From positions 4,229-68,228 of the forward strand of contig JADHVO010000011.1 in NCBI GenBank assembly GCA_016783965.1: a DNA stretch of 64,000 nt. The letters are read 5' to 3'. The notes under the pieces were generated by a model. The model searched no databases and had not been told where the DNA came from. It was given only the letters and a program-made list of their open reading frames with translations. Positions 8,201-56,823 of the stretch are shown in pieces (position 1 is the stretch's first letter; each line of letters begins with the position of its first letter). Position numbers and translations under genes: made by a program. This DNA comes from Alphaproteobacteria bacterium (GTDB taxonomy: Bacteria; Pseudomonadota; Alphaproteobacteria; Micropepsales; Micropepsaceae).

Positions 8201-8430
8201 GGGATACCGGCCATCGCCGTCTCCACGAGGAAGGTGACGCGCTGCTCGACTTCGAGCGGCGAGTAACCGGGCGCCTGGGTATTGATTTGCACCTGGACGT
8301 TGGTGATGTCCGGCACCGCATCGATCGGCAATTTCTGATACTGGGTGACGCCGAAGACGACAAAGCCTAGCACCGCAACCATGACGAGCCAGCGGTTGCG
8401 AATAGCGATGTCGATGATCCGGTCGATCAT
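5251..8430 (-). CDS. czcA: heavy-metal efflux RND permease, CzcA type (divalent cations)
   Basis: 1059 aa. PDITNVQVQINT at the N-terminus and the TM4 signature ALDFGLIVDGALIIVEN of the HME family. Confidence 0.95.
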   Translation of the reverse strand: MIDRIIDIAIRNRWLVMVAVLGFVVFGVTQYQKLPIDAVPDITNVQVQINTQAPGYSPLEVEQRVTFLVETAMAGIPHLKNTRSTSAYALSQVTVVFEDGTDIYMARQLVNERLQEVKAQLPSGVEPEMGPVSTGLGEIYLYTVNAERDARKPDGKPYTATDLRAIQDWIIRPQLRQVPGVSEVNSIGGYAKQFQVAPDPARLLSFKLSLSDLIAALQANNVNVGAGYIERNGEQYLVRVPGQLADEEAIRRAVITTRDNVPITVGDVAEVGVGHELRTGAATQDDHETVIGTAMMLIGENSRIISERVDARLKEINKRLPAGVTTKPVYNRTVLVNKTIATVQKNLIEGAALVIIVLFLFLGNLRAALLSAAVIPLALFATFTGMVQGGVSGNLMSLGALDFGLIVDGALIIVENCMLRLAEAQHHHGRLLTSGERYETVFNATREVFKPSLVSVIVIVLVNLPIFALSGVEGKMFHPMAFAVVAALIGALVLSITFVPAACALLLTGKIKEKDNFLVAWAKRAYEPLLYRVLQLRLVVVGAALALVVVCGVIATQLGAEFIPNLDEGDIAIETVRPVSTGIDTAVAMQLQLNRALRAIPEVKTVFARNGTAEVATDLMPPGRSDTYVMLKPHEEWPDPDKPKAKLVAEVEAAARSVLGTVYGFSQPIQLRFNELISGVRSDVALKIYGDDLDELVRLATASQRILSGIAGAEDVKMEQVSGLPLLTVDPKRTELARYGLSVSNVQDVVAAALGGKETGLIYEGDARYPLEVRLPENLRTDIDQLRRLPLARPGGGYVPLEEVADIRFSEGPNQVSRANGKRFTVVMANVRGRDLAGFVKDAQAQIGAKLQMPPGYYVEYGGTFEQLQSATERLTLLVPLALLMILGLLVITFGSIKDALLVFSGVPLSLTGGILALLLRGIPLSITAGVGFITLCGVSVLTGVVMVSYIRDLVRDGLPIEEAIIKGALTRLRPILMIGLVASLGFLPMALNTSTGAEVQRPLATVVIGGIISATLLSLFVLPALYRMFHRVPREQTVVGSQLPDTFDSTRAESRPST

Positions 8431-8762
8431 GATGCCGCCCTCGCATCACGCACGCGGATGACATCGCCAAGATCGGAGATCGTCACAAGACCGTCGCCGG
8501 CCCGTCCTGTGTGGGCGGCCTTTGCGATCAGTTCGGCGATATAGCGGGCTTCCTTGTCCTCGCAAACGATCATCAGTGCCCGCCGCTTGTGATAGACGAG
8601 GCCTTCATCGGCGTCATAGACGAAGTGACCTCCAGATCCTTTACCGCGACCCTGCCCATGGGCGTCAACGATCGTGAACCCGGGAAACCGCGGCAGTTCA
8701 TGGAGCGCAAGCACGACATGCCTGAGCCGATGCGGCTGAATGATCGCGTCGATGCGTTTCAT
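8427..8762 (-). CDS. P-II (GlnB-like) family protein embedded in the RND operon
   Basis: 111 aa. MKRIDAIIQP..L..V..AL, a GQGRGKG T-loop-like segment and TGRAGDGLVTISDL..VIRVR. ATGA overlap with czcA and TAATG overlap with the adaptor gene. Confidence 0.85.
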   Translation of the reverse strand: MKRIDAIIQPHRLRHVVLALHELPRFPGFTIVDAHGQGRGKGSGGHFVYDADEGLVYHKRRALMIVCEDKEARYIAELIAKAAHTGRAGDGLVTISDLGDVIRVRDARAAS

Positions 8763-11628: not shown

Positions 11629-12111
11629 ATGACGCTTCAATTTTTCTCGATCGGCGATCTCGCGCAACGCTCGATGACGAACGCGCAGACCATCCGCTAT
11701 TACGAACAGCAAGCTCTGATGCCGGCGCCTGGTCGCACCAGCGGTGGCCAGCGGCGCTATACAAAGCGTCATGCCGACCGTCTCGCTTTTATCCGGCACG
11801 CGCGTGAATTGGGATTCGGTCTTGAAGCAGTGCGGGAGTTGCTTCGTCTGGTCGACGAGCGCGCGCCGTCTTGTGCACGGGTTGACGGTGTCGCGCAGGA
11901 GGTACTCACGGATGTCGAGACGAAGATCACGCGGCTTGAGGCTTTGCGTGCCGAACTCCAGCGCATGATCCGTCAATGCCGCCGCGGCCGGGTCGAACAA
12001 TGCCGCGTCGTCGAGGTGCTGGCGGACCACACGCACTCCCAGTGCCTGACGAGCGATCATGGGGCCGCGGGTCTGCGTCAAACGCCCGCTCCGAGAAAGA
12101 GGCGGGCATGA
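11629..12111 (+). CDS. MerR-family heavy-metal-responsive regulator (CadR/ZntR/PbrR-like)
   Basis: HTH IGDLAQRSMTNAQTIRYYEQQ. Cys82 plus C117-x7-C125 is typical of divalent-metal MerR regulators. Confidence 0.9.
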   Translation: MTLQFFSIGDLAQRSMTNAQTIRYYEQQALMPAPGRTSGGQRRYTKRHADRLAFIRHARELGFGLEAVRELLRLVDERAPSCARVDGVAQEVLTDVETKITRLEALRAELQRMIRQCRRGRVEQCRVVEVLADHTHSQCLTSDHGAAGLRQTPAPRKRRA

Positions 12112-42132: not shown

Positions 42133-42303
42133 TGGAATTATCCACTATCAGTCTAATCTGCGGAGATTTTCGCATTCTGCGCGAATTTTCGCAGGAAACC
42201 TCTGCGCCGATTCCACCAGCTTGGCAAGGTTTTTTTGGTTAACGAAACGTTAACATGGCAGGGAATCTGTAATAGATACTGAGACTTATAGCGACCGTTC
42301 CCA

Positions 42304-42319
42304 GTTAGCCATGGCTAAC
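42304..42319. other. parS-like 16-bp perfect palindrome
   Basis: GTTAGCCATGGCTAAC fits the outer positions of the repABC parS pattern GTTnnCnnnnGnnAAC. It extends to the 18-bp palindrome AGTTAGCCATGGCTAACT. Confidence 0.6.
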
Positions 42320-42386
42320 TGCACCTCCAAATAGACGTCCGCTTGAGTGGCGATCGATCGCGAGCCTCCCACTGCTAGACGCGAGA

Positions 42387-42402
42387 GTTAGCCAAGGCTA
42401 AC
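42387..42402. other. second parS-like palindrome (imperfect at the central pair)
   Basis: GTTAGCCAAGGCTAAC lies 83 bp from the first copy. Confidence 0.55.
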
Positions 42403-43232
42403 CGCCATTCAATGTTGGATCTGGTAGGCGAATCCGTGGACGGGTAGCGATTGCTCGGCAGGTTCCACACGACTCGAGAGGTTTCGGGATGATCCAAGTC
42501 CATTTGGAGAGTAGGGACCTCGACAAGCATGTGGGTCGTCGGGTGCGCGCCTCGAGCGCTGGACGCTGGTGCGGTATCAAAGCGCTAACGGTGGCGGAAG
42601 GCGTTCGCCTCGGCTAACAACCAAGCCGAAGGGGACGGTGGGAGGGCGGCCCGCAATGTCTAAGCGTGGGCCCCCATGTGGCCAAGCGTAACTGTTCTTT
42701 ATTTGTTCTTTGCTGCGCTGCACCATAGGCGTGGCGGCCATGCGACGCAGAGGGTTGGAACCGTCAGATATCCGCCCCAATTCCTGGGAACACTCGCACG
42801 CTCGGAGGGCGGAAAGGTTGGCTTCTTGTGGGTTTAGGCGCGAAACTTTGTCGGAGGGCGGAACGGCGCCGGCGCCCCGCCGTTGCCGACACGGCTGAGG
42901 CGGCCCGGAGGAAGGACCGCTCTCGAATGACGCCTATCTCGGCCTCCGTAGACCAGAGCGGGTATTGCCCAAACATCACACGCGCTCGGAATCTTAGGCA
43001 CCTGCGACCTTTTGCCCGAAATATTCAGGTTTCTTTTGCCGATTTGTGGCAATTTCCGGGCAAATCAACGTCGGAACTCAGCGCGTTCCTGACTGGCCCT
43101 GTGCGGAGCTCGCGTGAAAGCCACCAGACTGACTTGCGCCCATCGGCCGCCCCGCGCGCCGATCCCAGCTCGCTTGACGCCTGCGGTCGCGCGGTCGCGA
43201 CGCGCGCGGCTAGCTGAGCGGAGGGCCTGATC

Positions 43233-44351
43233 GTGGTCTACCCGCTCACCGTCAACCGGCTTATGGGCCTTTGCGCATTTGAATCGACGGGGCGGAAGAG
43301 GGCGGGCACCACAGCACCAGATCCCCAAGTGGTCGCCGACAGATTCTTCGAACAGATGGAGCTCATCTCGAGGGAAGACCTTGGTCCTATTTATTGCAAA
43401 GTGCACGACAAGGCAAAGGCACTTGGAATTGCGTTCGACGACGCAACGGACTTCGACGACCTCCCAGTTTCTATCGTCCAGAAGCCCGAAATGTTCGACG
43501 ATGAGGACCAGACGCGCCTGTTCCCTGCGAGCGCATATTCCGCCGATCTCTCCAAACAACCTCGCAATGAGCCGACAGTGGGCTTGTTCGGCTCAAAACG
43601 AGTACGCGCGAAGATCGGCGACGCGCATTGGGATATCCGCATCCGCCCATCGGTAACGGCTTGCGTTCTCGAGGGCCAAAACCGTCGCTCGAAAATCTGG
43701 TGGACCATTGAAGGCGTGCCTGTCGACAAGCAGAACTCGCCGACAGCGGCAGACTCCGTGACCTTCATCAAGAAGACCACAAAAGTCGCAGAATTGGCTC
43801 TCCAAGAGTTGCGGGCGGCCTATATCAAGGCGCTAAAGCAGGTTGATGAAAAAGAACGAGGACCCGAACGGTTCGGAGACGCTCAGCTTCGTGTCAGCTT
43901 TGCTGACAATACCGATTCGGACTTTTTGCACCTGGTTGACGCAATGACGCTAACGCGTCTTACCTTTAACGACGCGCTTACAGGGTCAGCCGCAAAAGCG
44001 GTCCGTGCCGGCGCGGGAGAGGTCGAGCGATTTATTCGCAAAACCGCAGCCATGCCGGACCCGCTTAACGTCAAGCTGAAAGTCGGCAATGGCGGGACGG
44101 CAGCCGTATTCTCTGAGGCAATGCTTGATGTTTCGGCGCCCCCCAACATCAATCGCTGGGTGATTTCCGGTCTGGCGAGTTCGATCGGAATGGTCTCAAG
44201 CAATCTTCCAACAGATCCGCGATGGATGCGTTTCGCCGCTATGCCGGACCTTGCGCGCTCGGTCTCGGCTGCACGGCCGCTCAGTGCACGTATCGCCGAC
44301 AATGGCGCCCGGCAGCTTGAAATCGTCCGAGCGCCGCAGCCCGCGGCCTAG
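43233..44351 (+). CDS. hypothetical protein, no recognisable domain
   Basis: 372-aa ORF with a GTG start. The true start could be Met at 43263 or 43356. Lower GC than the flanks by eye. Same strand as the next gene. Confidence 0.5.
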   Translation: MVYPLTVNRLMGLCAFESTGRKRAGTTAPDPQVVADRFFEQMELISREDLGPIYCKVHDKAKALGIAFDDATDFDDLPVSIVQKPEMFDDEDQTRLFPASAYSADLSKQPRNEPTVGLFGSKRVRAKIGDAHWDIRIRPSVTACVLEGQNRRSKIWWTIEGVPVDKQNSPTAADSVTFIKKTTKVAELALQELRAAYIKALKQVDEKERGPERFGDAQLRVSFADNTDSDFLHLVDAMTLTRLTFNDALTGSAAKAVRAGAGEVERFIRKTAAMPDPLNVKLKVGNGGTAAVFSEAMLDVSAPPNINRWVISGLASSIGMVSSNLPTDPRWMRFAAMPDLARSVSAARPLSARIADNGARQLEIVRAPQPAA

Positions 44352-44507
44352 GTCCTGGACGGGAAGTCTATTGTCAGCGCTCGGAACCTGACGTTACACT
44401 TTTGTGTCTCGCAACCATAAATAACCGGTGCGAGCGCGTACGCGTAACTCGGCGGGGCAAAAGCACCAAGACACAGGGCAGGGACCGCATCGAGCGGGCG
44501 AGGAATC

Positions 44508-46241
44508 GTGTCACCAAAGAAAAACGCCGTCGACGAAATCTTTCGCGACGATCCACTGCTCCTTAAGGCCGAAAGCCAAGCGGCCTACGGCAAGGAACTG
44601 CTTGAGAATGTGCTTCTCATGCGGACGTCGAAATTCGGACTGCCTCGCATCGTTGACCTTCATGATCCGGCAACTTACCTGCCTTCGCCAAACCCGGAGC
44701 AACCACCGCAACCGACACCCGACCTCGCCAAAAGGTATTTGCAGAGCATCATTTTGCGCGAAAAACTCAATCTAACTCAGGAAGAGGAAGATGCGCTCAA
44801 GCGTGTGACCGTCATGTCCCGAGGCGAACGCACGACTCGACGCCTCCCCCCGGAGAAAAAGAAGGACCCAAAGGCTAAACCGAAGTTTCAGACCCACGAA
44901 AAAGCAAAAGCGGCCCTTAAGAAAAAAAACATCGACATCGACAGCCGACTTCGCATAGCTGCCGTGGGCACACGGGTTCGGATCAGCAAGCTCATCGATA
45001 AAGCCTATCTCGACGAGGATCTTTGCCTCGCAAAACCGCTCGATGCCGGCCAAGCCATAGAAGGAATGCCTGATAGGGCAGGTATTCCCGAACTCGGACG
45101 CACTCGACGCCTTCAAAGTCCGGAGAGCGATGCTCGCTGGAAGCGCTGGAAAGACACAGTTTGCAGCCACATTAAGACCGCGGCCGCCAGCGGATGCCAA
45201 ATCATCGCCTTGCCCGAATTCGGACTCCCTCCGGAGGTGGACGGCGATCACATCGAAAACCAGATCCGCGATTGCTGTTTCCCCGGAGGCGACGGACAGC
45301 ACTTTTCTCATTTCATATTTGCCGGGTCGCGCCACGAAGGGGGATCAAATCGAGGGCTTGTCATCTACCATAAGCAGGGTGAGAAGCCTCATCGGCAGGA
45401 GTGGCACTACAAACTCGCCTCGGCGAGGGCGCTGAGCGAGAATATCCTCGGCCCACGCAGCGACAAATACATTACCTACAAAGTCGACGTGAAGGGATCG
45501 GATGGCAAGTCATTTCCTATTCATGTCACACCGGCGATCTGCTTCGACACATTCGACCCCTCGACCTTTCTGTCGCTCGTGCGTCAGTCAGCAACCATCT
45601 TGGCGACGCAGACATCGCACATCATTCTGGTCCCGTCTTTCAATCCGTCCGACGACTTCGTCGAGCTCTTGCGCGATCTTAGCTTCTTAACCGGTGCCGT
45701 GGTCGTTTATGTCAACAGCCTGCATGGCGACGCACGCGTGTTTATCGCGGGATGCGCGGTCGGCGCAGTCCTCGACGGCGGTGGAGCAACGCTGCTGGCG
45801 AAAATGGAAGAGCATCTCGACACTATGCAAGCGGTCAGGAAGGCCGCGCCAGAGGATATCGATAGAGCAAGGAAGAGCGGAGATCGTCATCTGGCGGAAC
45901 AGCTCCGAAAGCGCTCGACGCTATACCGCGACCTCACGCCGGTTCTTAAGGATCTACGAAGTAGCCTGAAGGACGTGATCGATCGCGGAGGGCTCGATCA
46001 TATAATCACTGTCGAGTTCTGTCAGGAGTGCAAGGATAAGTCGCATACGGACGATTATGGCTGCAATGCGGACATCCTGTATTACAACCTCGATGCTGAG
46101 CTGCTCGACATTTTGAAGCTTTGGCGCCACACCTACATAACGTTGGACGAGTCCTTTATTCCCGCGCCGTTCCATTACAAGCGCCTTCTCCAAGCGATCG
46201 ATGAAGACGAGGAGCGGAACGTAAGACGCGACAGCAATTAG
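44508..46241 (+). CDS. 577-aa protein with a central nitrilase/CN-hydrolase-like E-K-C core and unique N- and C-terminal extensions
   Basis: GTG start after a GAGGA Shine-Dalgarno. QIIALPEFG (Glu), WHYKLASA (Lys, 65 aa later) and TPAICFDTF (Cys, 43 aa later). Lys-rich N-terminal segment. Cys/His-containing C-terminus (FCQECKDKSHTDDYGC). Confidence 0.55.
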   Translation: MSPKKNAVDEIFRDDPLLLKAESQAAYGKELLENVLLMRTSKFGLPRIVDLHDPATYLPSPNPEQPPQPTPDLAKRYLQSIILREKLNLTQEEEDALKRVTVMSRGERTTRRLPPEKKKDPKAKPKFQTHEKAKAALKKKNIDIDSRLRIAAVGTRVRISKLIDKAYLDEDLCLAKPLDAGQAIEGMPDRAGIPELGRTRRLQSPESDARWKRWKDTVCSHIKTAAASGCQIIALPEFGLPPEVDGDHIENQIRDCCFPGGDGQHFSHFIFAGSRHEGGSNRGLVIYHKQGEKPHRQEWHYKLASARALSENILGPRSDKYITYKVDVKGSDGKSFPIHVTPAICFDTFDPSTFLSLVRQSATILATQTSHIILVPSFNPSDDFVELLRDLSFLTGAVVVYVNSLHGDARVFIAGCAVGAVLDGGGATLLAKMEEHLDTMQAVRKAAPEDIDRARKSGDRHLAEQLRKRSTLYRDLTPVLKDLRSSLKDVIDRGGLDHIITVEFCQECKDKSHTDDYGCNADILYYNLDAELLDILKLWRHTYITLDESFIPAPFHYKRLLQAIDEDEERNVRRDSN

Positions 46242-46428: not shown

Positions 46429-47037
46429 ATGCACATGATGAACTCGCTGACCGAGAAAGTTTTGAGCTATGTGGAAACGCAGCCAGAGGGTACGCCTCTG
46501 ACAGCGAAGGGGCTACTGCATCTGTCCAACCGCGCGGCCATTGATCAAACACTCTCTCGGCTCGCGAGAAACGGCCGCGTCTTGCGCGTTGGACGCGGTC
46601 TCTATGTTCGGCCCGTAGCAACGAAATTTGGTCCCAGAGCTCCATTTCCGGAGAAGCTGATCGAAGGAATTGCACGCACGAGCGGAGAAACGATTGTGTC
46701 GAGTGGAGCTACGGCAGCAAACGAACTTGGCCTGACGACACAAGTACCGGTTAGGACCGTCTATCTAACTTCGGGCCGCAGTCGCAGGCTATCGCTCGGC
46801 AAGCAGTCCATCGAACTTCGGCATGCAAGTTCGCGAAGCCTTGCGAAGCCAACCGAGAGAGCAGGGCAGGCAGCCCGGGCCCTTACTTGGCTTGGGCCGC
46901 GGGAAGCGAGGCGCGCCCTATCGGTGCTAACCCATCGGTTGGAGCCGCGAGAATTGGAAGAGTTGCAGGCTATGCGCCCCGTTTTGCCTGGATGGCTAGC
47001 CCAAACCGTGAGCACACTAGTGCCAACGAATGGCTGA
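46429..47037 (+). CDS. abiEi: AbiEi-family type IV antitoxin / transcriptional regulator
   Basis: N-terminal wHTH-like region (LTAKGLLHLSNRAAIDQTLSRLARNGRVLRVGRGLY). C-terminal GATAANELGLTTQVP. 8-nt overlap with abiEii. The start is probably ATG 46435. Confidence 0.8.
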   Translation: MHMMNSLTEKVLSYVETQPEGTPLTAKGLLHLSNRAAIDQTLSRLARNGRVLRVGRGLYVRPVATKFGPRAPFPEKLIEGIARTSGETIVSSGATAANELGLTTQVPVRTVYLTSGRSRRLSLGKQSIELRHASSRSLAKPTERAGQAARALTWLGPREARRALSVLTHRLEPRELEELQAMRPVLPGWLAQTVSTLVPTNG

Positions 47038-48070
47038 GAGCTATTTTACGCTCTCCGCCCAGGAAAAACAGGATGCGCTAGCTGTCGCACAGACTGCACT
47101 CGGGCGTCCGCTCCACCTTCTTGAGAAAGACATCTGGGTGGTGTGGACGCTCGAGCAGCTCTTTGCCTCGCCCTTCGCTGAGCACATGGTCTTCAAAGGA
47201 GGAACATCGCTCTCAAAGGCCTATCACGCGATCGATCGCTTCTCGGAAGACATCGATATCACCTACGACATCCGTACCATTGCAGGCGACCTCACCAAGC
47301 AAACCACGGACGGATGGCCGAAGTCTCGAAGCCAACAGGAACGATGGACTGATGAGATCAGAAAGCGCCTCGCTGATTGGGTGAAATCCACAGCGCTTCC
47401 CTATTTCGAAGCCAAGCTCTTGGAGATCGATCCGGAAGCAAAAGTCACCGCCGAAAACGACACGCTCGTCATCACCTATATCGCGGTTGGAACCGGAACT
47501 GGATATGTGGCCCCGCGAGTCAAAATCGAATTTGGCGCTCGCTCGACCGGGGAACCGTCTGAGTTGCGTGAGATCGTGGCCGACGCCGCGATCCTGCTGA
47601 AAGAGATCGATTTTCCACGGTGCAATGCGCGCACAATGCGCGCGGAACGAACCTTCTGGGAAAAAGCGACGGCCGTGCACGTCTTTTGCCTTCAAGGCAA
47701 ACTCGGCGGCGACCGCTATTCCCGTCATTGGTACGATTTGGTCCAACTGGATCGGGCAGGCGTCGCCACCAAAGCCATCGGCGCTCCCGATCTCGCAAGG
47801 AACGTCGCTGACCACAAAGCCATCTTTTTTCGGGAGAAAGATGCCGAGGGCAATGTCATCGACTATCTCGCGGCGGTCACGGGACAGCTGAAGCTCGTGC
47901 CCTCGGGAGAGGGCAGGGCAATCCTCGAAGCGGACTACGGAAAGATGCTTGAGGACGGCCTTCTTCCCGACGGAGCCACGCCATTTGCCGTGCTCATGGA
48001 CGCCTGCGCCGATCTTGAAAAACGAGCGAATGCTCCCGCCACCGGAGAAAAAGAGAAAATATCGAAGTAA
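47030..48070 (+). CDS. abiEii: AbiEii/AbiGii nucleotidyltransferase toxin
   Basis: LEKDIWVVW...MVFKGGTSLSKAY...RFSEDIDITYD (NTase GS...DxD motif). Confidence 0.9.
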   Translation: MAESYFTLSAQEKQDALAVAQTALGRPLHLLEKDIWVVWTLEQLFASPFAEHMVFKGGTSLSKAYHAIDRFSEDIDITYDIRTIAGDLTKQTTDGWPKSRSQQERWTDEIRKRLADWVKSTALPYFEAKLLEIDPEAKVTAENDTLVITYIAVGTGTGYVAPRVKIEFGARSTGEPSELREIVADAAILLKEIDFPRCNARTMRAERTFWEKATAVHVFCLQGKLGGDRYSRHWYDLVQLDRAGVATKAIGAPDLARNVADHKAIFFREKDAEGNVIDYLAAVTGQLKLVPSGEGRAILEADYGKMLEDGLLPDGATPFAVLMDACADLEKRANAPATGEKEKISK

Positions 48071-48142: not shown

Positions 48143-50803
48143 TTGGAGCCCACTGCGCGCCGCACAATCGTCGTCGAGGGACCGCTGGCCTATCACAGGC
48201 GTCGGCTTGCGGCTGCGCGCAAGAGCGAGGCCGGGGTTCAAATTCTCGCAATGCCCCACATCGCGGCACGGCTTGCCGGCGGATTTCAGCGTCCCGCGCG
48301 GGGCCAGGATCTCGACGCGGCAATTCGCAACGCGCTCAGGGTAGGGACCTTCGAAGATATCGGCCGCATGCAGGAATTGCCGGGGATGCCCCGTGCGATT
48401 GCACGCGCGCTGACCAAGCTGTGGCTGGCAGACGCCGATATCAGCGAAGCGGCAAAGCGCCATGGTCGATTGCGCGACCTCCTAATTGTCGAACGGCTGG
48501 TGCGCGAGACGTTGCCTGCTGGCGCCCTGACCATTCGTGATCTACGCGATGCGGCGCTGGCGCGTGTTGTCCATGCGCGCACTGTGCTCGGTGACATTGA
48601 GCTTGACCTGCGAGGCGATGTCGCGCCGCTCTGGCGGCAACTGATACTCGGCCTCACGAGAAACGTCGGCGTGACTTGGCGCGAGCTTTCGACGGCCGCG
48701 AGCTGGTTTCCCGGTGAGACGGTCGACGCAGAGCCCACAGCAGCCCCGCCGCCATCCGTGCGCGTTTCATGCGCAAATCCACGATCAGAAGCGATTGAAG
48801 CGCTGCGCTGGATGCGCGAACTCCTAGCAAAGGGTGTGCCCCCAGCCGAGATCGCCATTTCCGCAACAAGTACGGAAACGTGGGACGAGCATTTCGATGC
48901 TCTCTCTATGGAGTCGGCGCTTCCGCTTCACTTCTCTCACGGTCGCGGCGGCCTCGCGACCTATGACGGCCAAACATGCGCGGCCCTTGCCGATGTGCTG
49001 ATCCAGGGCCTCAATCAACGGCGCGTCCGGCGTTTATTTCGTTACGCGCGGCGAAGTAAAGGTCTCGAAGGCTTGCTTCCGAGCTGGAGCCGGCCGCTCA
49101 GAAGAGATGCGGCACTCCTGAGCGTGCAACATTGGCAGCATGCACTCGATCAAATTTCTCTCGGCGAGGGTGAGATCGATCCACGCCCTATTGTCATGCC
49201 GATCATCACACTGCTCGCGCGCGGCCCTGAAGTGGCCGAAGAAGCCGGTGCGCTTCTCCTTGAGAAGAGAGCGCGAGCGCTCTGGACAGACGCTCTGCGG
49301 CGGGCGCCCGCAAGCGCGTTGCTCCTATCCCTTGAAGAGTTGCGTCTTCCGGATCGGCGCGACCCCGGTGCATCTGTCGTCTGGTGCCCGGCCCATCATC
49401 TTGCGGAGGCGCCTCGAGCATATGTTCGCCTGCTTGGCCTCAACGCACGTAGCTGGCCGCGGCGCGGGAGCGAGGACCCAATCCTCCCAAGCCATATGGT
49501 CAGTGGCGGCATGCTTGATCCAACATGGATCACGCAGCAGGATCGCGAGCATTTCCGGATCATCCTCGGGCGCGCGAGCAAGGCATTGATCCTGTCGCGG
49601 AGCCGGCGCGATGCGCAGGGCAAGACCTTGCCGCCGAGCTCGCTCGTCGCGCAGAGCAGCGGAGCCGAGCTTGAACTGAAGCGGACAAGAAGTCCCTCTC
49701 ACGCCTTCGGCGAGGGCGACAGGCTCCTCGCAAGGCCCGAAGAAGCCGCGACGTTGCCGCAAATCAATTCGGCAAGTCTCTGCTGGCAGAACCGGCAGAG
49801 CAGGGCGGTCACGGCCCATGACGGCCAGGTGAGAGAAGATCATCCGCTTGTGTTGCGCGCCCTCGGCCGCGTGCAATCGGCGACGTCTCTTAAGGCGCTC
49901 CTTCGAGATCCGCTCGGATTTGTCTGGCGTTATGGTCTTCGCTGGTCAGCCCCGGCCCTTGATAACCAGCCGCTGCGCCTTGAGCCGCGGGTCTACGGCG
50001 AACTCGTCCACGACATTCTGAAACACGCGGTTCTCGCGCTTGAGCCAGCGCCCGGATTTCGCCAGGCGGACCCACAGCAAATCCAGGCAGCCATTGAGGA
50101 AGCCCGCGTCCTCATCCGACAGAAGTGGCCGCTGGAAAAACCGGTTCCACCCGGGATGCTTTGGGATCATACGCTCGCGCGGGCAGCCGATCTGGCCAAT
50201 ATGGCGCTTGGGCTCGATCCACGTATTACGGCCGGATCGCAAAGCTGGCCTGAGGCCCTCTTCGGGCAAGCAGAGGCTTCAGGCGCGCACACAGACCTGC
50301 CTTGGCCCGTCGATGTCCCTGTGCCCATCCCCGGCACCGACGTAACCGTCAACGGCAAGATCGATCGCCTCGATATTCGCATCGACGATACTCGTCGCGC
50401 AGCGCAGGTCACCGACTATAAGACCGGCAAGCCGGCGGCGGCAGGCATAATCCTCAACGGTGGCCGCGAACTACAGAGGGTCACCTATGTTCTGGCGGTT
50501 AGACATCTGCGGCCCGACATCACCGCGTGGCAGGCACGGCTCGTCTATCTTACCGATGAGGGCCCGAGCACGGACAGGCTCGTAAATATCGATGGCGCTA
50601 TAGGCACCCTAACGCAGAACGTTACCGCAGCGAGTGCACTGGTCAGGCGCGGCATAACACTGCCTGGAGAGGATGCGGAAGACGACACCTATGATTTGCG
50701 TCTTGCGCATCCCGCGTCGCGACGTGTGTATTTCGAGGCTAAGCGAAACGCGATAGGGCGCGTTCTTGGCGCAACTTTTGTGGAGTCGTGGGCATGCCCC
50801 TAG
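48143..50803 (+). CDS. AddB-like PD-(D/E)xK nuclease subunit (no Walker A)
   Basis: 886 aa. The C-terminal RecB-type nuclease motif is VNGKIDRLDI...QVTDYKTGK...QRVTY. No GxxGxGKT motif and no obvious 4-Cys cluster. Confidence 0.8.
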   Translation: MEPTARRTIVVEGPLAYHRRRLAAARKSEAGVQILAMPHIAARLAGGFQRPARGQDLDAAIRNALRVGTFEDIGRMQELPGMPRAIARALTKLWLADADISEAAKRHGRLRDLLIVERLVRETLPAGALTIRDLRDAALARVVHARTVLGDIELDLRGDVAPLWRQLILGLTRNVGVTWRELSTAASWFPGETVDAEPTAAPPPSVRVSCANPRSEAIEALRWMRELLAKGVPPAEIAISATSTETWDEHFDALSMESALPLHFSHGRGGLATYDGQTCAALADVLIQGLNQRRVRRLFRYARRSKGLEGLLPSWSRPLRRDAALLSVQHWQHALDQISLGEGEIDPRPIVMPIITLLARGPEVAEEAGALLLEKRARALWTDALRRAPASALLLSLEELRLPDRRDPGASVVWCPAHHLAEAPRAYVRLLGLNARSWPRRGSEDPILPSHMVSGGMLDPTWITQQDREHFRIILGRASKALILSRSRRDAQGKTLPPSSLVAQSSGAELELKRTRSPSHAFGEGDRLLARPEEAATLPQINSASLCWQNRQSRAVTAHDGQVREDHPLVLRALGRVQSATSLKALLRDPLGFVWRYGLRWSAPALDNQPLRLEPRVYGELVHDILKHAVLALEPAPGFRQADPQQIQAAIEEARVLIRQKWPLEKPVPPGMLWDHTLARAADLANMALGLDPRITAGSQSWPEALFGQAEASGAHTDLPWPVDVPVPIPGTDVTVNGKIDRLDIRIDDTRRAAQVTDYKTGKPAAAGIILNGGRELQRVTYVLAVRHLRPDITAWQARLVYLTDEGPSTDRLVNIDGAIGTLTQNVTAASALVRRGITLPGEDAEDDTYDLRLAHPASRRVYFEAKRNAIGRVLGATFVESWACP

Positions 50804-53800
50804 ACGACCTCCGCGACGCCCCGGCAAGGATCAGAGCTCTCACCGACCACACGTCGACCTTGTTGGTCGAGGCGGGCGCCGGTACGGGCAAGACAGCGCT
50901 TATGGCCGGTCGCATTGTGATGCTTCTCGCAGCGGGCGCCGATCCGCGAGAAATTGCAGCGATAACTTTTACAGAGCTGGCGGCAAGCGCGCTCGATGCT
51001 CGCGTTCACCGCTATATTACCTGGCTGCGAGCAGGTCGAATTCCGGAGACGCTTCGCCTCGCACTGCCAGATGGGGCGCTTTCCGATCCCCAGAAATCGG
51101 CACTCGCCAAAGTCGCACCTCATCTCGATCAACTGACCATCGCAACCATCCACTCTTTCTGCCAAACCCTCATTTCAAGTTACGCCGTGGAAGCGAGCAT
51201 CGATCCCGGCGCTCGGATGCTGGATGCCGATCAGGCAGGCACGTTCTTCGACAACGTGTTTGACACCTGGATCAAAGGCCGCTTCAGCCGCACTCCTCAG
51301 CCCGACGACCCGATAGCGGCACTCTCACGCGATGACCCGCGCCGCGTCGTCGATAGGCTCAGGCAATTTGCGGAGTTCAGAAGGCGTCATCGCGAGGCGC
51401 GTACTTTCGATGATGATCTCGAAGGACGGCCTGACATTGAATTGAACGAGGCGATCGCGGCGTTCCGGCGATGGGCGAACAGCCTTCCGCGGGCGCCGCA
51501 AAAGACAACCCGGCTCCTTACCGATCTCGAAAAGCTCGCGCCGTTCTTCAAAGACAGCTTCGCCACCAAGCCGGACTTCGCCCGCCTTTGGCACCTCGCA
51601 CACGAAGTGCCGGTGATTGAATGCATGGGATACCAAGGCGCATGGAAACAGGCCGAGCTTGAGTGGCCTCCGCAGGAGGCCGAATGGTCGATGGCTTCCC
51701 GCACCGACGGCGCGAGGCTTCACGCTGAAGCCAAAGCGCTTTTTGATGCTGTCGATCAGTGTTACCGCAGCATCATGGGCCGGATTGCGACCGCGACCAT
51801 GGCGCGGCTTGCTCGTGATCTTGACGAAATCATTGCGGCCTATGACCACGCGAAGCGCGCCGCGGCCGTGCTCGACTTCGACGATCTCCTCATCAAGGCA
51901 CGGGCGCTCGTACGCGGACACGAAGCTGTTCGGCAGGCGCTTGCGCGCCGCTACAGATATCTCTTTGTGGACGAGTTTCAGGATACCGATCAAATTCAGG
52001 CCGAAGTGATCTTTGCGATCGGCGCCGAGAGCCTCGGCGCAGGCTGGCACCAAAACCGGTTGCGGGAAGGCGCGCTGTTCCTCGTTGGCGATCCGAAGCA
52101 GTCGATTTACAGATTTCGCGGTGCTGATCTTGGTTGCTATTGCAAGGCGCGCGACGCCATCAATGGCGCTCATCCCGGAAACGTTCTCAAGATCAGCGAG
52201 AACTTCCGCTCCAGGGAAGACATCCTGACCTTCGTCAACGATCGATTCGGCCCGCTCTTTCGCGGAACCGGTCTGGACTATGAGGATCTGACCTCGACGC
52301 GCGTGCCCCCCGTCCACAACCTGCCGGTCGTCTCAAGGTTGCCCATCAATGCTGACGGAAGGAAGAAGGAGAGCCTCCGGCGTGCGGAGGCGGAAGCCGT
52401 TGCCGATCTCTGTGCGCGCCTTATCGGCAATATCGAAGTCCGTGAGGGCGAAGGCACGCGCCCGCTGAAACCAGGCGATATTGCCCTTCTCTCGCCGGGC
52501 TGGACCGACCTCTGGCGATATGAGCACGCCCTTGAAAGCAGGGGGCTCCCGATCGCGACGCAAGCAGGAAAAGGCTTCTTTGGCAGGCAAGAGGTCCAGG
52601 ACCTGCTTTCCCTCGCGCGCACGCTTGCCGATCCGCGCGATTACCTCGCCTTTGGCGCTCTGATGAGAGGACCTCTGATTGGCCTCAAAGATGAGGAATT
52701 ATTGGATATCGTCGAGCGGTTGCCGCCGTCGCTGGACGAGCCGGGGGCCATCCCGCGATTTTCCCTGATGACTCCGACCGAAGAGGTCGCGGATCACGCG
52801 CTTGCGCAAGCGACGCTCGAAATCCTGAAATCGCTCCAGCGCAAAGCTATGAGCACGACCCCCGGGCTCCTGCTCACCGAGGCCATTGAGCGTCTCAACA
52901 TAAGGGCGATCGTGACGGCCCGCGATACGCGCGACAGCGGACGCGCCGTCGCCAACCTTGAATTGTTTCTCGAGCGGGCGCGCGGTTATCGCGTCCGCGG
53001 TCTCGGCCAGTTTGTCCAGGACGTCACCCGCGAGTGGTCGGAGAGAAACAACGCGCAAGTCGAAGGCCAAATTGATGCCGACGGCAGCGCGATCAATCTG
53101 ATCACGATCCACAGCGCCAAGGGCCTCGAGTGGCCGGTCGTCATTCCGGTCAACATGTGCTCGGGTTTCGGCCAGAGACCGAGGCTGCTGCATCGTCCGG
53201 CCGACGATACGCTGCACTGGGTCATTGATGACGTTGCGCCGCCATCGGTGTTTGACGCCCGCCGCTCGATCGAGGCGGAGAATGAGTGCGAGCGCCAGCG
53301 GATGTGGTACGTGACCTGCACGCGCGCCGAGGAATTGCTCATCGTCCCTGACATCCCGCGACTCCGCTATCAGTCATGGTCCGGTCTGGTCGAGCTGAAT
53401 GTTGGGGCTTTGCCGTCCTTTCCGCTCGAGTCTCTCCCGACGCAGCCGCGATTAGCTATCGATGAGCCTACCAATCATCAGACCAAGGAGACGTTTGACA
53501 GAGAGTTCGCCGCTATCGCTGCGAAATCCGTCGAAACGAATTGGGTGCAGCCAAGCTCCCATGACGAAGATCGCGCCGAACTGGTCGAAGCTCTTCTCAT
53601 GGCTCCGGAAGAAGCCGTCGATGCGCTCGAACCAGTGGGCGGCGGCAAGATTAGGGGCCTTGCCCTTCACAAGATGATGGAAGAGATCCTGACCGGCGAG
53701 GTGCAGGACGAGGAAACCGCCTTGGCCACCCGGGCACGGGTGTTACTTGGGGAACTGGGCAGCGAAGCAGAGGAGGGGGCTGAATTACCTGAACCGGCTG

Positions 53801-54120
53801 AGCTCGCCGCGACGGTACGCCGAACACTTCTTTTGCCCGAAATTAAGCGCCTCCGGCCCCGGCTGATCCCGGAATACCCGGTTTATGGAGCGCCCGATAA
53901 GTGGACGGCTGTTTCAGGCCGCATCGATGCGATCGCACCTGAAGATGAAGGCGCTGTTGTTGTCGACTGGAAGAGCGACATCGCCCCTTCTGAGGGCGAC
54001 ATCCAGGAACATCTCAGACAAACCAAGGACTATTGCGAAATGGTTGGCGCCCGGACGGGCCTCGTCGTTTACATGTCCACCGGCAAGATATTCCGCTTCG
54101 ATACCGGCGAGGCTCCTTAG
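50788..54120 (+). CDS. AddA-like UvrD/Rep-family helicase with a C-terminal PD-(D/E)xK nuclease
   Basis: EAGAGTGKT, DEFQDTD, VGDPKQSIYRFRGAD, TIHSAKGLEWPVV and the C-terminal GRIDAIAPEDEGAVVVDWKSD. Overlaps the upstream gene by 10-16 nt. Confidence 0.9.
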   Translation: MGMPLDDLRDAPARIRALTDHTSTLLVEAGAGTGKTALMAGRIVMLLAAGADPREIAAITFTELAASALDARVHRYITWLRAGRIPETLRLALPDGALSDPQKSALAKVAPHLDQLTIATIHSFCQTLISSYAVEASIDPGARMLDADQAGTFFDNVFDTWIKGRFSRTPQPDDPIAALSRDDPRRVVDRLRQFAEFRRRHREARTFDDDLEGRPDIELNEAIAAFRRWANSLPRAPQKTTRLLTDLEKLAPFFKDSFATKPDFARLWHLAHEVPVIECMGYQGAWKQAELEWPPQEAEWSMASRTDGARLHAEAKALFDAVDQCYRSIMGRIATATMARLARDLDEIIAAYDHAKRAAAVLDFDDLLIKARALVRGHEAVRQALARRYRYLFVDEFQDTDQIQAEVIFAIGAESLGAGWHQNRLREGALFLVGDPKQSIYRFRGADLGCYCKARDAINGAHPGNVLKISENFRSREDILTFVNDRFGPLFRGTGLDYEDLTSTRVPPVHNLPVVSRLPINADGRKKESLRRAEAEAVADLCARLIGNIEVREGEGTRPLKPGDIALLSPGWTDLWRYEHALESRGLPIATQAGKGFFGRQEVQDLLSLARTLADPRDYLAFGALMRGPLIGLKDEELLDIVERLPPSLDEPGAIPRFSLMTPTEEVADHALAQATLEILKSLQRKAMSTTPGLLLTEAIERLNIRAIVTARDTRDSGRAVANLELFLERARGYRVRGLGQFVQDVTREWSERNNAQVEGQIDADGSAINLITIHSAKGLEWPVVIPVNMCSGFGQRPRLLHRPADDTLHWVIDDVAPPSVFDARRSIEAENECERQRMWYVTCTRAEELLIVPDIPRLRYQSWSGLVELNVGALPSFPLESLPTQPRLAIDEPTNHQTKETFDREFAAIAAKSVETNWVQPSSHDEDRAELVEALLMAPEEAVDALEPVGGGKIRGLALHKMMEEILTGEVQDEETALATRARVLLGELGSEAEEGAELPEPAELAATVRRTLLLPEIKRLRPRLIPEYPVYGAPDKWTAVSGRIDAIAPEDEGAVVVDWKSDIAPSEGDIQEHLRQTKDYCEMVGARTGLVVYMSTGKIFRFDTGEAP

Positions 54121-55241: not shown

Positions 55242-55661
55242 ATGAGTGAGAACAAGGAAGTCCAGCCCGAGGGCGAAAAGCCGCTCTGCGTCGAGCTGAA
55301 GGAAGCGCGTCACGAACTGGAGGAGGGCATCGCCGAAGAGCGCCGCGGCGAGACCCGCATCGAGGCGGCGGAGCATCGCATCGAGCAGATCGTCGAGGAG
55401 CTCGAGAAGGAGTCGCGCATCAAGGTCAACGGGCGCACCCGCACGATCGAGGGCCATGTCGCCTGCTTCGATCAGGTCGTGAAGTTCGCCTACCCGAACG
55501 GCCCGACCAAGCCCAACACGAAGTTCACCGTCACCTACCGCGACGCAGCGGAGGTGCCGCCGACCGGTGAGCTCGACCAGAACCAGTGCGTGCGCGTGAA
55601 GAAGGGTTGCGACCCCATGGAGGAGACGAGCTTCAATGTCACCGAAACTGTTCTCTCGTAA
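55242..55661 (+). CDS. multiubiquitin-domain (beta-grasp) protein with an N-terminal coiled coil
   Basis: 139 aa. IKVNGRTRTIEGHVACFDQVVKFAY...FTVTYRDA matches my recollection of the Multi_ubiq pattern. The C-terminus is ...TETVLS, with no terminal GG. Confidence 0.65.
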   Translation: MSENKEVQPEGEKPLCVELKEARHELEEGIAEERRGETRIEAAEHRIEQIVEELEKESRIKVNGRTRTIEGHVACFDQVVKFAYPNGPTKPNTKFTVTYRDAAEVPPTGELDQNQCVRVKKGCDPMEETSFNVTETVLS

Positions 55662-56823
55662 CCCCGACCTTCAGCGTCTCCGCGACGACGGCTACTTCGT
55701 GCAGATCGTTGACGACGACAAGTTCCTCGTGATGCGCGAGGTTCCCTACGTCAACGATCGGCGCGAAGTGAAGCTCGGCACGCTCGTCACGGCGCTCGAA
55801 CTTGCCGGCGACATCACGAAGAAGCCCGTGCCGACGCACGTCGTGATGTTCGATGGCGATTACCCCTGCGACGCGAACGGCAAGGTCATGAATCTCGGCG
55901 GTCCGGGCGACCGCCGAGAGGTCGCTCCCGGCCTCTTCGTGCGTCACAGCTTCTCGCAGAAGCCGGACGGCGGCTATGCCGACTACTACGCGAAGATGAC
56001 CACCTACCACGCCATGCTTGCGGCGCCTGCGCGCGTGGTTGACCCCGAGATCAAGCCGCGGCAGTTCGCGGCGCCGGCCGACAGCGATCCGGAGTCGATC
56101 TTCGAATATCCCGACACGGCCTCGGGCCGCACCGGCACGGCGGCGTTGGCGGCGCTGTTCAAGAGCGAGATCATCGCGCTCATCGGTCTCGGCGGGACGG
56201 GAGCCTACATTCTCGACAAGGTGGCGAAGACGCCGGTTCGTGAGATCCGCCTCTTCGACGCCGACGAGTTCCTGAACCACAACGCGTTCCGCGCGCCGGG
56301 GGCGGCTTCGCTGGAGGAACTCCGCCTGGCACCCCTGAAGGTCGACTATTTCAAGGCGATCTACTCGCGCATGCATCGCGGCATCACGGCCCATCCGGTG
56401 ATGCAGGGACCGAAGCACGTCCATCTGCTCGACGGCGTGACCTTCGCGTTCATCGCCATGGATGACGGGCCGGAGAAGGAGGCTGTGATCAACAAGCTCG
56501 AAGCCATCGGCGCGTCCTTCATCGACGTCGGAATGGGCCTCTCGCTTGATGAACTGTCGCTTGGCGGCATCCTGCGGGTCACGGCCTCGACGCCCGCGCA
56601 CCGCGAGGTCGTTCGGCGCCATGTCTCCTTCGCCGAGAAGGGGGAGGGCGGCGTCTACGAGTCGAACATCCAGGTCGCCGATCTCAACAGCCTCAACGCC
56701 GACTTCGCCGTCATCAAGTGGAAGAAGATGCGCGGCTACTACCGCGACCTCGAGAAGGAGCTGCACAGCACCTACACGACCGACGGCAACTTCATCGTCA
56801 ACCGTGACCGGGACCGCGGATGA
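55636..56823 (+). CDS. prokaryotic E2-like domain fused to a ThiF/E1-like adenylyltransferase
   Basis: 395 aa. The N-terminal domain has DGDYPC(78)D. The ThiF Rossmann region is IALIGLGGTGAYILDKVAKTPVREIRLFDADEF..HN. The gene overlaps both neighbours. Confidence 0.85.
   Translation: MSPKLFSRNPDLQRLRDDGYFVQIVDDDKFLVMREVPYVNDRREVKLGTLVTALELAGDITKKPVPTHVVMFDGDYPCDANGKVMNLGGPGDRREVAPGLFVRHSFSQKPDGGYADYYAKMTTYHAMLAAPARVVDPEIKPRQFAAPADSDPESIFEYPDTASGRTGTAALAALFKSEIIALIGLGGTGAYILDKVAKTPVREIRLFDADEFLNHNAFRAPGAASLEELRLAPLKVDYFKAIYSRMHRGITAHPVMQGPKHVHLLDGVTFAFIAMDDGPEKEAVINKLEAIGASFIDVGMGLSLDELSLGGILRVTASTPAHREVVRRHVSFAEKGEGGVYESNIQVADLNSLNADFAVIKWKKMRGYYRDLEKELHSTYTTDGNFIVNRDRDRG

Follow-up and report, generated by a model that had tools for sequence, protein, structure and literature searches.

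A stand-alone nitrilase-fold protein and its orphan partner: a candidate mobile conflict cassette of Alphaproteobacteria

Introduction

Nitrilase-fold domains take part in several described bacterial defence systems in which they accompany a reverse transcriptase (RT). DRT1 (UG1) and DRT11 (UG5-large, from the S. meliloti pSymA megaplasmid) both need a fused nitrilase domain for defence, in UG5-small and UG6 the nitrilase has a gene of its own, and an RT-nitrilase system from P4-like satellites has also been validated (PMC13275509, PMC13436386, PMC9122126). What these defence nitrilases act on, and by which mechanism they kill, is posed as a question by the authors of the DRT1 study (PMC13275509). 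Outside the RT systems, CN-hydrolase is among the domains that a preprint lists for bacterial NACHT proteins (bioRxiv 10.1101/2022.07.19.500537). We analyse here a pair of genes, called A and B, at positions 43233 to 46241 of a 64,000-nucleotide stretch (the window) of contig JADHVO010000011.1 from an assembly designated Alphaproteobacteria bacterium (GCA_016783965.1), in which a stand-alone nitrilase-fold protein is paired with an orphan protein.

Our literature search on CN-hydrolases or nitrilases in connection with defence islands, conflict systems and leading regions brought up only the RT-nitrilase and NACHT precedents. A first-pass annotation of the window, made from its letters alone, had known of no described defence system built on this fold; the novelty claimed in this way was wrong in view of DRT1, DRT11 and UG6/UG5-small, and also of the NACHT proteins as far as the domain listing of the preprint goes. 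The A-B pair differs from all of these, and the data below suggest that it is a rare, mobile unit of its own, possibly a conflict cassette.

Results

The A-B module

The two genes are the following (ORF, open reading frame).

43233-44351, + strand, gene A: GTG start, intact ORF of 372 aa
44508-46241, + strand, gene B: GTG start, intact ORF of 577 aa

As the first-pass annotation had described, the genes are co-oriented and separated by 156 bp, and they follow about 1.1 kb of apparently non-coding DNA: the 1100 bp between gene A and the divergent repA contain no convincing ORF. Both GTG starts are supported by Shine-Dalgarno (SD) sequences (GGAGGG at 43220-43225, 7 nt before the start codon of A; GAGGA at 44500-44504, 3 nt before that of B) and by agreement with the N-termini conserved among homologues. 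Neither gene is a chance ORF, since full-length homologues of each exist (for B 45, for A 90 clusters) and their alignments contain strongly conserved columns. The lower G+C (GC) content that had been noticed relative to the rep and cus flanks was borne out by the values, 0.564 for the module versus 0.605 for repABC, 0.618 for an addAB-like pair, 0.649 for cus and 0.605 for the whole window.

Gene B encodes a predicted divergent nitrilase-superfamily enzyme

An AlphaFold2 (AF2) model of B, computed from the 45 homologues, has a mean predicted local distance difference test score (pLDDT) of 88 and a predicted template modelling score (pTM) of 0.91. When this model was compared with the PDB by Foldseek, the 31 best matches were all members of the nitrilase superfamily (E 2e-7 to 7e-4, probability 1.00); the closest was Nit2 (2w1v, E 2e-7), with a template modelling (TM) score of about 0.5 relative to the targets, and the matches also include aliphatic amidases, cyanide dihydratase, formamidase, carbamoylases, vanin and the glutaminase domain of NAD synthetase. 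The AF2 model and the Foldseek matches agree on the four-layer alpha-beta-beta-alpha sandwich that characterises the superfamily. The protein is divided as follows, with the four catalytic codons listed under the core.

44508-44948, + strand, B residues 1-147: N-terminal helical extension, basic (isoelectric point 9.7), with invariant R39, R84, T109 and R112
44949-45758, + strand, B residues 148-417: nitrilase-fold core (AF2 model)
45216-45218, + strand, codon of E237
45411-45413, + strand, codon of K302
45438-45440, + strand, codon of E311
45540-45542, + strand, codon of C345
45759-46238, + strand, B residues 418-577: C-terminal extension, with a long helical hairpin (425-492), a CCHC cluster and then further helices

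The ordered Glu, Lys and Cys that had been read from the motifs ALPEF (E237), HYKLA (K302) and AICFD (C345), with spacings of 65 and 43 aa, are indeed conserved in the family alignment (45/45, 45/45 and 44/45, respectively), and they are completed by a second glutamate, E311 (45/45). Each of these residues comes after a predicted beta-strand in the AF2 secondary structure, like in canonical nitrilases. B is thus, on the model and on its residues, a divergent and catalytically intact enzyme of the nitrilase superfamily, its activity being predicted from the conserved tetrad. Seven other polar residues are invariant (R275, H276, N281, N312, N379, R389 and D390), a set that suggests a polar, possibly anionic substrate.

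The two extensions flanking the core also correspond to what the first reading had pointed out, a Lys-rich N-terminal part (11 lysines in residues 101-146) and a Cys/His-containing C-terminal part (C505, C508, H513 and C519; 46020-46064). The CCHC cluster is kept in 34 of the 45 family members, reads CCDC in 2 more and has been lost in one sub-clade; it is probably a structural zinc site.

Sequence profiles hardly reach this protein. The Pfam family CN_hydrolase (PF00795) matches B with 14.5 bits, below the cut-off of 23.2, and over residues 218-244 only, where the PE motif aligns with the Glu region of the profile; weak matches of the same kind occur in 28 of the 45 family members (best E 3.5e-5). 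Scans of B against NCBIfam, PADLOC (version 2.0, E <= 1) and PHROGs gave no match, and a B profile run against PDB sequences gave coiled-coil or noise matches only. In a set of 5.8 billion proteins the family amounts to about 46 clusters (90% identity), and the homologue search found no relatives between E 1e-99 and 1e-3, so that it is isolated from other CN-hydrolases. As structure places B in the superfamily, yet outside the curated sequence family, we regard it as a separate branch. B has no membrane-type segment (the highest Kyte-Doolittle 19-residue mean is 1.63 and lies within the core sheet). The possibility that B is Lnt-like was considered and rejected, there being neither membrane segments nor an NCBIfam or Pfam match to Lnt; structure and profile searches thus place B in the nitrilase superfamily, and in neither of the two placements, a housekeeping amidase or Lnt, that had been named as arguing against an accessory or defence role.

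Gene A encodes an orphan protein

Searched exhaustively with a profile, 1.84 billion representative proteins yielded 90 clusters of A homologues. All full-length members are stand-alone proteins of about 340-400 aa, free of fusions. Their first 100 residues or so are variable, and the conserved core that follows (about 260 aa) carries the motifs WDxRIRPSVTAC, LRVSxAD, GLASS and, near the C-terminus, RSxSAARPLSA; the extreme N-terminus is conserved as well (M-x-Y-x-L-T-x-N-R).

No motif had been recognised in A from its letters, and much wider searches did not place it in a known family or fold. Pfam, NCBIfam, PADLOC and PHROG scans of A were without match, 75 family members compared with Pfam showed no recurring family, and A profiles built from two alignments hit only coiled coils or noise among PDB sequences. 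The AF2 model of A (pLDDT 83, pTM 0.87) has no significant Foldseek match in the PDB or in the predicted viral structures of BFVD: the top match, YwmB (E 3.6e-3, probability 0.47), is too weak for a fold assignment, and scattered matches to START/Bet v 1/BPI-like proteins (helix-grip or 'wrap' folds) are of low probability, with a root-mean-square deviation (RMSD) above 13 A, and do not amount to an assignment. Outside its own family, A showed no sequence or fold relative in these searches. By analogy with UG6 and UG5-small, a 'FADN' motif in A raised the possibility of a cryptic RT; this candidate was rejected, as A gave no RT among its Foldseek matches and matched no DRT or UG model of PADLOC at E <= 1.

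A and B are paired, co-diverge and move together

Loci carrying the pair were gathered from a protein index, 185,579 species-representative genomes, JGI metagenomes and exact-protein look-ups; they are numbered L001 onwards where they need to be told apart. Wherever the sequence reaches far enough upstream of B (about 24 distinct loci, with one variant excepted), the gene immediately before B on its strand is an A homologue, which answers positively whether the two genes co-occur elsewhere; the 9 remaining loci without A have sequence that starts at B or within about 230 bp of it. Pairwise identities of A and of B are correlated over 21 loci (r = 0.71; Mantel test, 0/2000), and A is the faster-evolving partner, with a mean identity of 0.30 versus 0.37 for B and a lower value in 94% of the pairs.

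The GC content of the module is below that of its flanks in 21 of 21 loci. The clearest case is Rhodoblastus acidophilus DSM 142 (L011; pair at roughly 71.7-75.9 kb of NZ_WNKS01000008.1), the sole cultured carrier found, where a low-GC island at about 8.0-12.2 kb of the locus (GC 0.40-0.57, versus 0.64-0.70 around it) holds A and B only. It is bordered on one side by two uncharacterised ORFs, with a gluQ-like tRNA-synthetase gene beyond, and on the other by purH. As nothing else is contained in this island, the minimal unit is A plus B. No convincing flanking repeats were found around it, and no tRNA genes in the nine loci examined for them.

Two small features of the same locus may be recorded here. 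A (CCATCGG)n heptanucleotide tandem repeat occupies 8232-8300, at the left edge of the low-GC island, and an imperfect 18-nt direct repeat (GGCGAATGACG..., 15/18) is found on both sides of A-B at 8608-8625 and 11747-11764; the latter may be an insertion scar or a chance occurrence.

The module is rare. It is present in 6 of the 185,579 species genomes, and all classified carriers are Alphaproteobacteria. The family is apparently confined to soil members of this class. It was not found in 72,556 PLSDB plasmids, 50,697 phage genomes or 2.9 million IMG/VR contigs; when the plasmids and phages were searched with DNA and protein, only repA matched (Rhizobium and Brucella plasmids, 74-82%). Taken together, these comparisons of sequence indicate that A and B are an obligate, co-diverging, horizontally mobile and self-contained pair.

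In the excepted locus (L036), and in no other for which upstream sequence exists, A is missing, and a sensitive profile search did not detect it either. Its B homologue (P0030, 10001-12559) is an 852-aa protein and the only family member in which the catalytic Cys is replaced, by Gly. About 300 additional N-terminal residues carry the motifs YYVGHG and ILDCCFAG and match Peptidase_C14 (caspase) at a sub-threshold E of 0.0064. Effector swaps are typical of conflict systems, and this single sequence looks like one made on the B scaffold; the joint absence of A and of the catalytic Cys hints that the role of A may be tied to the nitrilase chemistry.

Regulatory sequences around the pair

The spacer between A and B varies from 97 to 267 bp across loci, which is long for an operon, and in the window it contains several candidate control elements; another lies upstream of A.

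44352-44507, + strand, A-B intergenic region: 156 bp with a promoter candidate, a leader of about 100 nt and a hairpin before the SD sequence
44371-44400, + strand, sigma-70-like promoter candidate for B: TTGTCA-N18-TACACT
44485-44488 and 44494-44497, + strand, GC-rich hairpin (CCGC/GCGG) before the SD sequence of B
43011-43064, nested inverted repeat TTTGCCCG...CGGGCAAA enclosing TTGCCG...TGGCAA, about 170 bp upstream of gene A

A sigma-70-like site within 90 nt after the stop codon of A is found in 11 of 23 loci, compared with 0.75 +/- 0.87 in shuffled sequences (maximum 5) and 0 in coding controls. In the leader alignment, the hairpin just 5' of the B SD sequence recurs in four other loci (L001, L013, L014 and L038), and the bases right after the putative -10 element are similar among loci (TTTTGTG...CGCAACC / ACAAC); both could reflect translational or operator control of B. 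No Rfam family matches the A-B gap or the 1.1-kb upstream region. B thus probably has its own promoter and leader. This speaks against a toxin-antitoxin operon of the classical, translationally coupled kind and leaves room for control of the A:B ratio.

The nested inverted repeat, which had been noticed at the outset, is modestly more stable than shuffled sequence (free energy -22.7 kcal/mol, z = -2.1). It is not an intrinsic terminator, as no T-run follows it on either strand; it could be an operator, and whether it belongs to the module is uncertain.

Closer to repA, the same non-coding region holds two copies of a 16-17 nt palindrome, GTTAGCCATGGCTAAC (42304-42320 and 42386-42402), 170-270 bp upstream of that gene, which resemble the parS/centromere sites of repABC plasmids. 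A tandem pair, TCTGCG(G/C)(A/G)(G/A)ATTTTCGCA, at 42157-42193, beside the repA start, could be an operator.

Neighbourhoods of the pair

Gene context was studied in 14 annotated loci, with defence genes identified by PADLOC or Pfam within 10 kb of the pair; some of the PADLOC matches come from a pooled scan and were assigned to their loci by inference. As a raw count, known defence genes are present in 7 of the 14 loci, and hallmarks of plasmids or integrative elements in six loci. The loci with informative neighbours are the following.

Window: AbiEi/AbiEii at 46429-48070, directly downstream of gene B
L001: Pycsar cyclase (E 6e-225); E2, TIR and cNMP genes; HEPN; a KlcB-domain gene after the pair
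L002: Septu-like ATPase and its partner (pooled scan and Pfam architecture); the pair comes after a ParB_N protein and a coupling-protein-like gene
L003: TIR/SMODS genes and integrases
L015: E1/E2/JAB system, HTH-M78 and Phd
L037 (5092-8352 and 12261-12881): ParB_N protein of 628 aa, ArdC (ArdcN and MPTase-PolyVal), the pair, a small gene weakly similar to Dam/methyltransferases, a T4 coupling protein, MobC and a relaxase
L038 (1-20257): SNF2 helicase, DruE-type helicase of 1737 aa (MZB/DUF1998; E 3e-81), A-B, three small unknown genes and type I Mokosh
L039: Mrr-type restriction enzyme, on a repABC plasmid related to that of the window

The Mokosh system of L038 is complete (MkoA 1548 bits, MkoB E 2e-98), and the DruE-type gene stands on the opposite side of A-B. 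Genes of toxin-antitoxin type adjoin the pair in the window (AbiE) and in L015 and L003 (Phd and Gp49/HTH_37). L037, on a conjugative element, is laid out like the leading region of a plasmid. Among the 14 loci there is no recurring neighbour of metabolic, transport or regulatory type, which rules out a housekeeping amidase with conserved metabolic neighbours.

The upstream flank in the window consists of repC, repB and repA on the minus strand, and the module is carried here on a repABC plasmid. L039 is its relative (RepA 78%, RepB 66% and RepC 67% identical) and shares the order repCBA, A, B, addAB-like pair; between the two plasmids, identity falls to 39-44% for A, B and the AddAB-like proteins, which thus diverge faster than the backbone. 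The first-pass annotation had placed A-B at the head of a defence-like island directly upstream of abiE. The adjacency is correct, AbiEi/AbiEii beginning at 46429, but the link was overstated, as AbiE was not found beside the pair in any other annotated locus, L039 included; AbiE and A-B are independent modules. A functional link of the pair to AbiE or to repABC was accordingly rejected, adjacency to repABC being limited to the two related plasmids.

Two further neighbours in the window deserve mention. The addAB-like pair at 48143-54120 encodes an AddB-like PD-(D/E)XK protein of 886 aa and an AddA-like UvrD/PD-(D/E)XK helicase-nuclease of 1110 aa, with a 16-bp overlap; it is kept at an equivalent position in L039 (17633-21734) with 39-41% identity, and may have been retained for long in this repABC plasmid lineage as a backbone or defence feature. 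Between it and the cus genes, 55636-56823 encodes a 395-aa protein that combines DUF6791 at the N-terminus (E 7e-49) with weak similarity to ThiF/E1 and may be part of a module of ubiquitin-like conjugation or of defence type.

Discussion

A candidate conflict cassette

We give about an even chance to the reading of A-B as a conflict cassette that is autonomous and serves defence or abortive infection, in which B would be the effector and A a sensor or an inhibitor. In its favour we count the fold and conserved tetrad of B, the strict pairing and co-divergence, the low-GC insertions, the defence genes near seven loci, the lack of a recurring metabolic neighbour, the promoter-like site between the genes, the L036 variant and the precedent of DRT1 and DRT11, whose nitrilase domains are required effectors. 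Under this proposal an obligate, self-contained and mobile two-gene cassette, carried here on a repABC plasmid, would supply the cell with a soluble cytoplasmic Cys-Glu-Lys-Glu hydrolase. Once B is licensed, the thiol of Cys345 would attack a non-peptide C-N bond (amide or nitrile type) in some metabolite or protein that is essential, and growth of the infected or invaded cell would stop, as is also thought for the nitrilase domain of DRT1 and DRT11. A, faster-evolving and variable in its N-terminal region, would sense the trigger or keep B inactive, and the promoter and leader of B would allow the A:B ratio to be set independently.

The suggestion from the first pass that this is a candidate novel accessory or defence pair has thus fared unequally: a novel accessory pair is well supported, whereas the case for defence is circumstantial and leans on frequent embedding among defence and mobile genes. 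Several observations weigh against the conflict cassette. Only 7 of the 14 annotated loci have recognised defence genes, as a raw count; five loci (L004, L006, L007, L011 and L036) have housekeeping neighbours only; and several others lie in transfer and maintenance regions of plasmids or integrative and conjugative elements, which would fit addiction or anti-defence equally. The family is very rare, and the context statistics accordingly draw on a small number of loci, some of them related. PADLOC 2.0 offers no model that matches A or B, the L036 variant is one sequence with a caspase match below the Pfam threshold, and the role proposed for A is purely conjectural, its fold not being recognisable.

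Other explanations

Stability modules are usually located beside replication and partition genes, and the pair is found in just this place, next to repABC, in two related plasmids (the window and L039). One might therefore see A-B as an addiction module of plasmids or mobile elements, with B a toxic amidase and A its protein antidote, persisting selfishly in chromosomes and having no role in immunity. Such a reading, which we consider unlikely, would also account for the two-gene unit with its strict pairing and co-divergence, for isolated low-GC insertions among housekeeping genes, and for the other toxin-antitoxin-type modules that adjoin the pair. Type II pairs, however, typically consist of far smaller proteins than these (372 and 577 aa), and a gap of 97-267 bp, with a promoter-like site for B inside it, leaves the two genes without translational coupling. 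Pfam scans that included 75 members of its family revealed neither a DNA-binding domain nor any other known antitoxin domain in A; the pair is moreover absent from all of the 72,556 PLSDB plasmids. Addiction and the conflict cassette are not sharply separated, as toxin-antitoxin and abortive-infection systems overlap and the difference is mostly one of trigger. The transfer-region loci also bring to mind an anti-defence or establishment function for conjugative elements, in which the pair would be expressed early and B, with A as a helper, would destroy or modify a host immune molecule such as an amide-bearing signal or cofactor. Leading regions are rich in anti-defence genes (PMC11541004), and A-B stands in L037 with the anti-restriction gene ArdC and a ParB-like nuclease on one flank and the coupling protein, MobC and relaxase genes on the other, in L002 after the ParB_N and coupling-protein-like genes, in L001 before the KlcB-domain gene, and in two loci on repABC plasmids. 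Clean chromosomal insertions with no mobile-element genes nearby (L004, L007 and L011), the embedding of the pair between Druantia-like and Mokosh systems in L038, its absence from phage genomes, IMG/VR and PLSDB plasmids, and a literature search that gave no link between nitrilases and leading regions make us regard this function as very unlikely.

The least probable of the readings, in our opinion, is ordinary accessory metabolism, with B a catabolic or detoxifying amidase or nitrilase, A a binding or helper protein, and the defence neighbours a coincidence, both kinds of gene collecting in variable regions. It would agree with the fold and tetrad that B has in common with metabolic amidases (the best structures being Nit2, aliphatic amidases and cyanide dihydratase), with the name 'predicted amidohydrolase' that some sources give to homologues, with the metabolic neighbours seen in several loci and with the weak fold echoes of A, which are of ligand-binding START/Bet v 1 type. 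Metabolic nitrilases are proteins of about 260-350 aa that lack extensions such as the conserved ones of about 150 and 160 aa in B, and no transporter, regulator or pathway gene recurs in the 14 annotated loci. Obligate pairing with a fast-evolving orphan and a Cys-less variant fused to a caspase-like module are both unlike catabolic enzymes, and the family is cut off from other CN-hydrolases by the gap between E 1e-99 and 1e-3. A different possibility, improbable in our view, keeps immunity and turns the relation of the two proteins around: A-B would be a new, RT-free immune system in which the stand-alone nitrilase B deamidates, acylates or clips a conserved terminus of A and so converts A, seen as a new-fold protein faintly reminiscent of wrap folds that bind lipids and ligands, into the killing or arresting agent. 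The targets would be M-x-Y-x-L-T-x-N-R at the N-terminus of A or RSxSAARPLSA near its C-terminus, and the scheme would parallel the protease-activated gasdermins, with C-N hydrolase chemistry instead. The N-terminal amidase and Lnt branches of the nitrilases act on protein N-termini.

Significance

Should the defence role of the conflict cassette hold, the nitrilase fold would have been recruited into bacterial immunity more than once, and A-B would be a tractable two-protein system for finding the target of effector hydrolysis. The setting is simpler than that of the DRT systems, with an intact-site nitrilase fold, no RT, no DNA adducts and one partner, and a cultured carrier is at hand in Rhodoblastus acidophilus DSM 142, whose island is A plus B only. 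If the pair serves addiction or anti-defence instead, it would still bring a new enzyme class to that role. A would in addition represent a new family of protein fold, one whose genetic partner is defined. Rarity and the apparent confinement to soil Alphaproteobacteria limit the general importance of the module.

Comparison with known systems

Among two-gene modules of plasmids, AbiE (type IV toxin-antitoxin, abortive infection) is the neighbour of A-B in the window and resembles it in organisation, but its proteins are unrelated to A and B. Metabolic nitrilases (Nit2, 2w1v; Nesterenkonia amidase, 3hkx; Pyrococcus amidase/nitrilase; cyanide dihydratase) share with B the sandwich core and a Glu-Lys-Glu-Cys tetrad in equivalent order and at equivalent strand ends. 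They differ from B in sequence (10-14% identity) and in detail of structure (TM about 0.5, RMSD 5.6-8 A), and B further departs from them by about 310 extra residues, an obligate partner gene, a mobile and variable context and a score below the Pfam gathering threshold. The NACHT (NLR-related) proteins, likened to A-B by the domain listing of the preprint alone, would be a case of the CN-hydrolase fold recruited into conflict proteins outside RT systems; they are single multidomain STAND NTPases, whereas B has no NTPase domain and its partner is a separate orphan.

Another close likeness is with the RT-nitrilase systems. DRT1, DRT11, UG5-small and UG6, like A-B, have a nitrilase-superfamily domain with an intact tetrad that is the presumed effector; UG5-small and UG6 also have the two-gene form with a separate nitrilase ORF, and DRT11 is found on a rhizobial megaplasmid and acts in a manner resembling abortive infection (PMC13275509, PMC13436386, PMC9122126). 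A-B differs from all of them in having no RT, no RT domain being present among its neighbours in the window or the annotated loci, in the N- and C-terminal extensions peculiar to B, in its orphan partner and in the lack of a PADLOC match at E <= 1. A-B is thus not a member of the DRT nitrilase systems, but by analogy it may function as they do, through a presumed nitrilase-fold effector.

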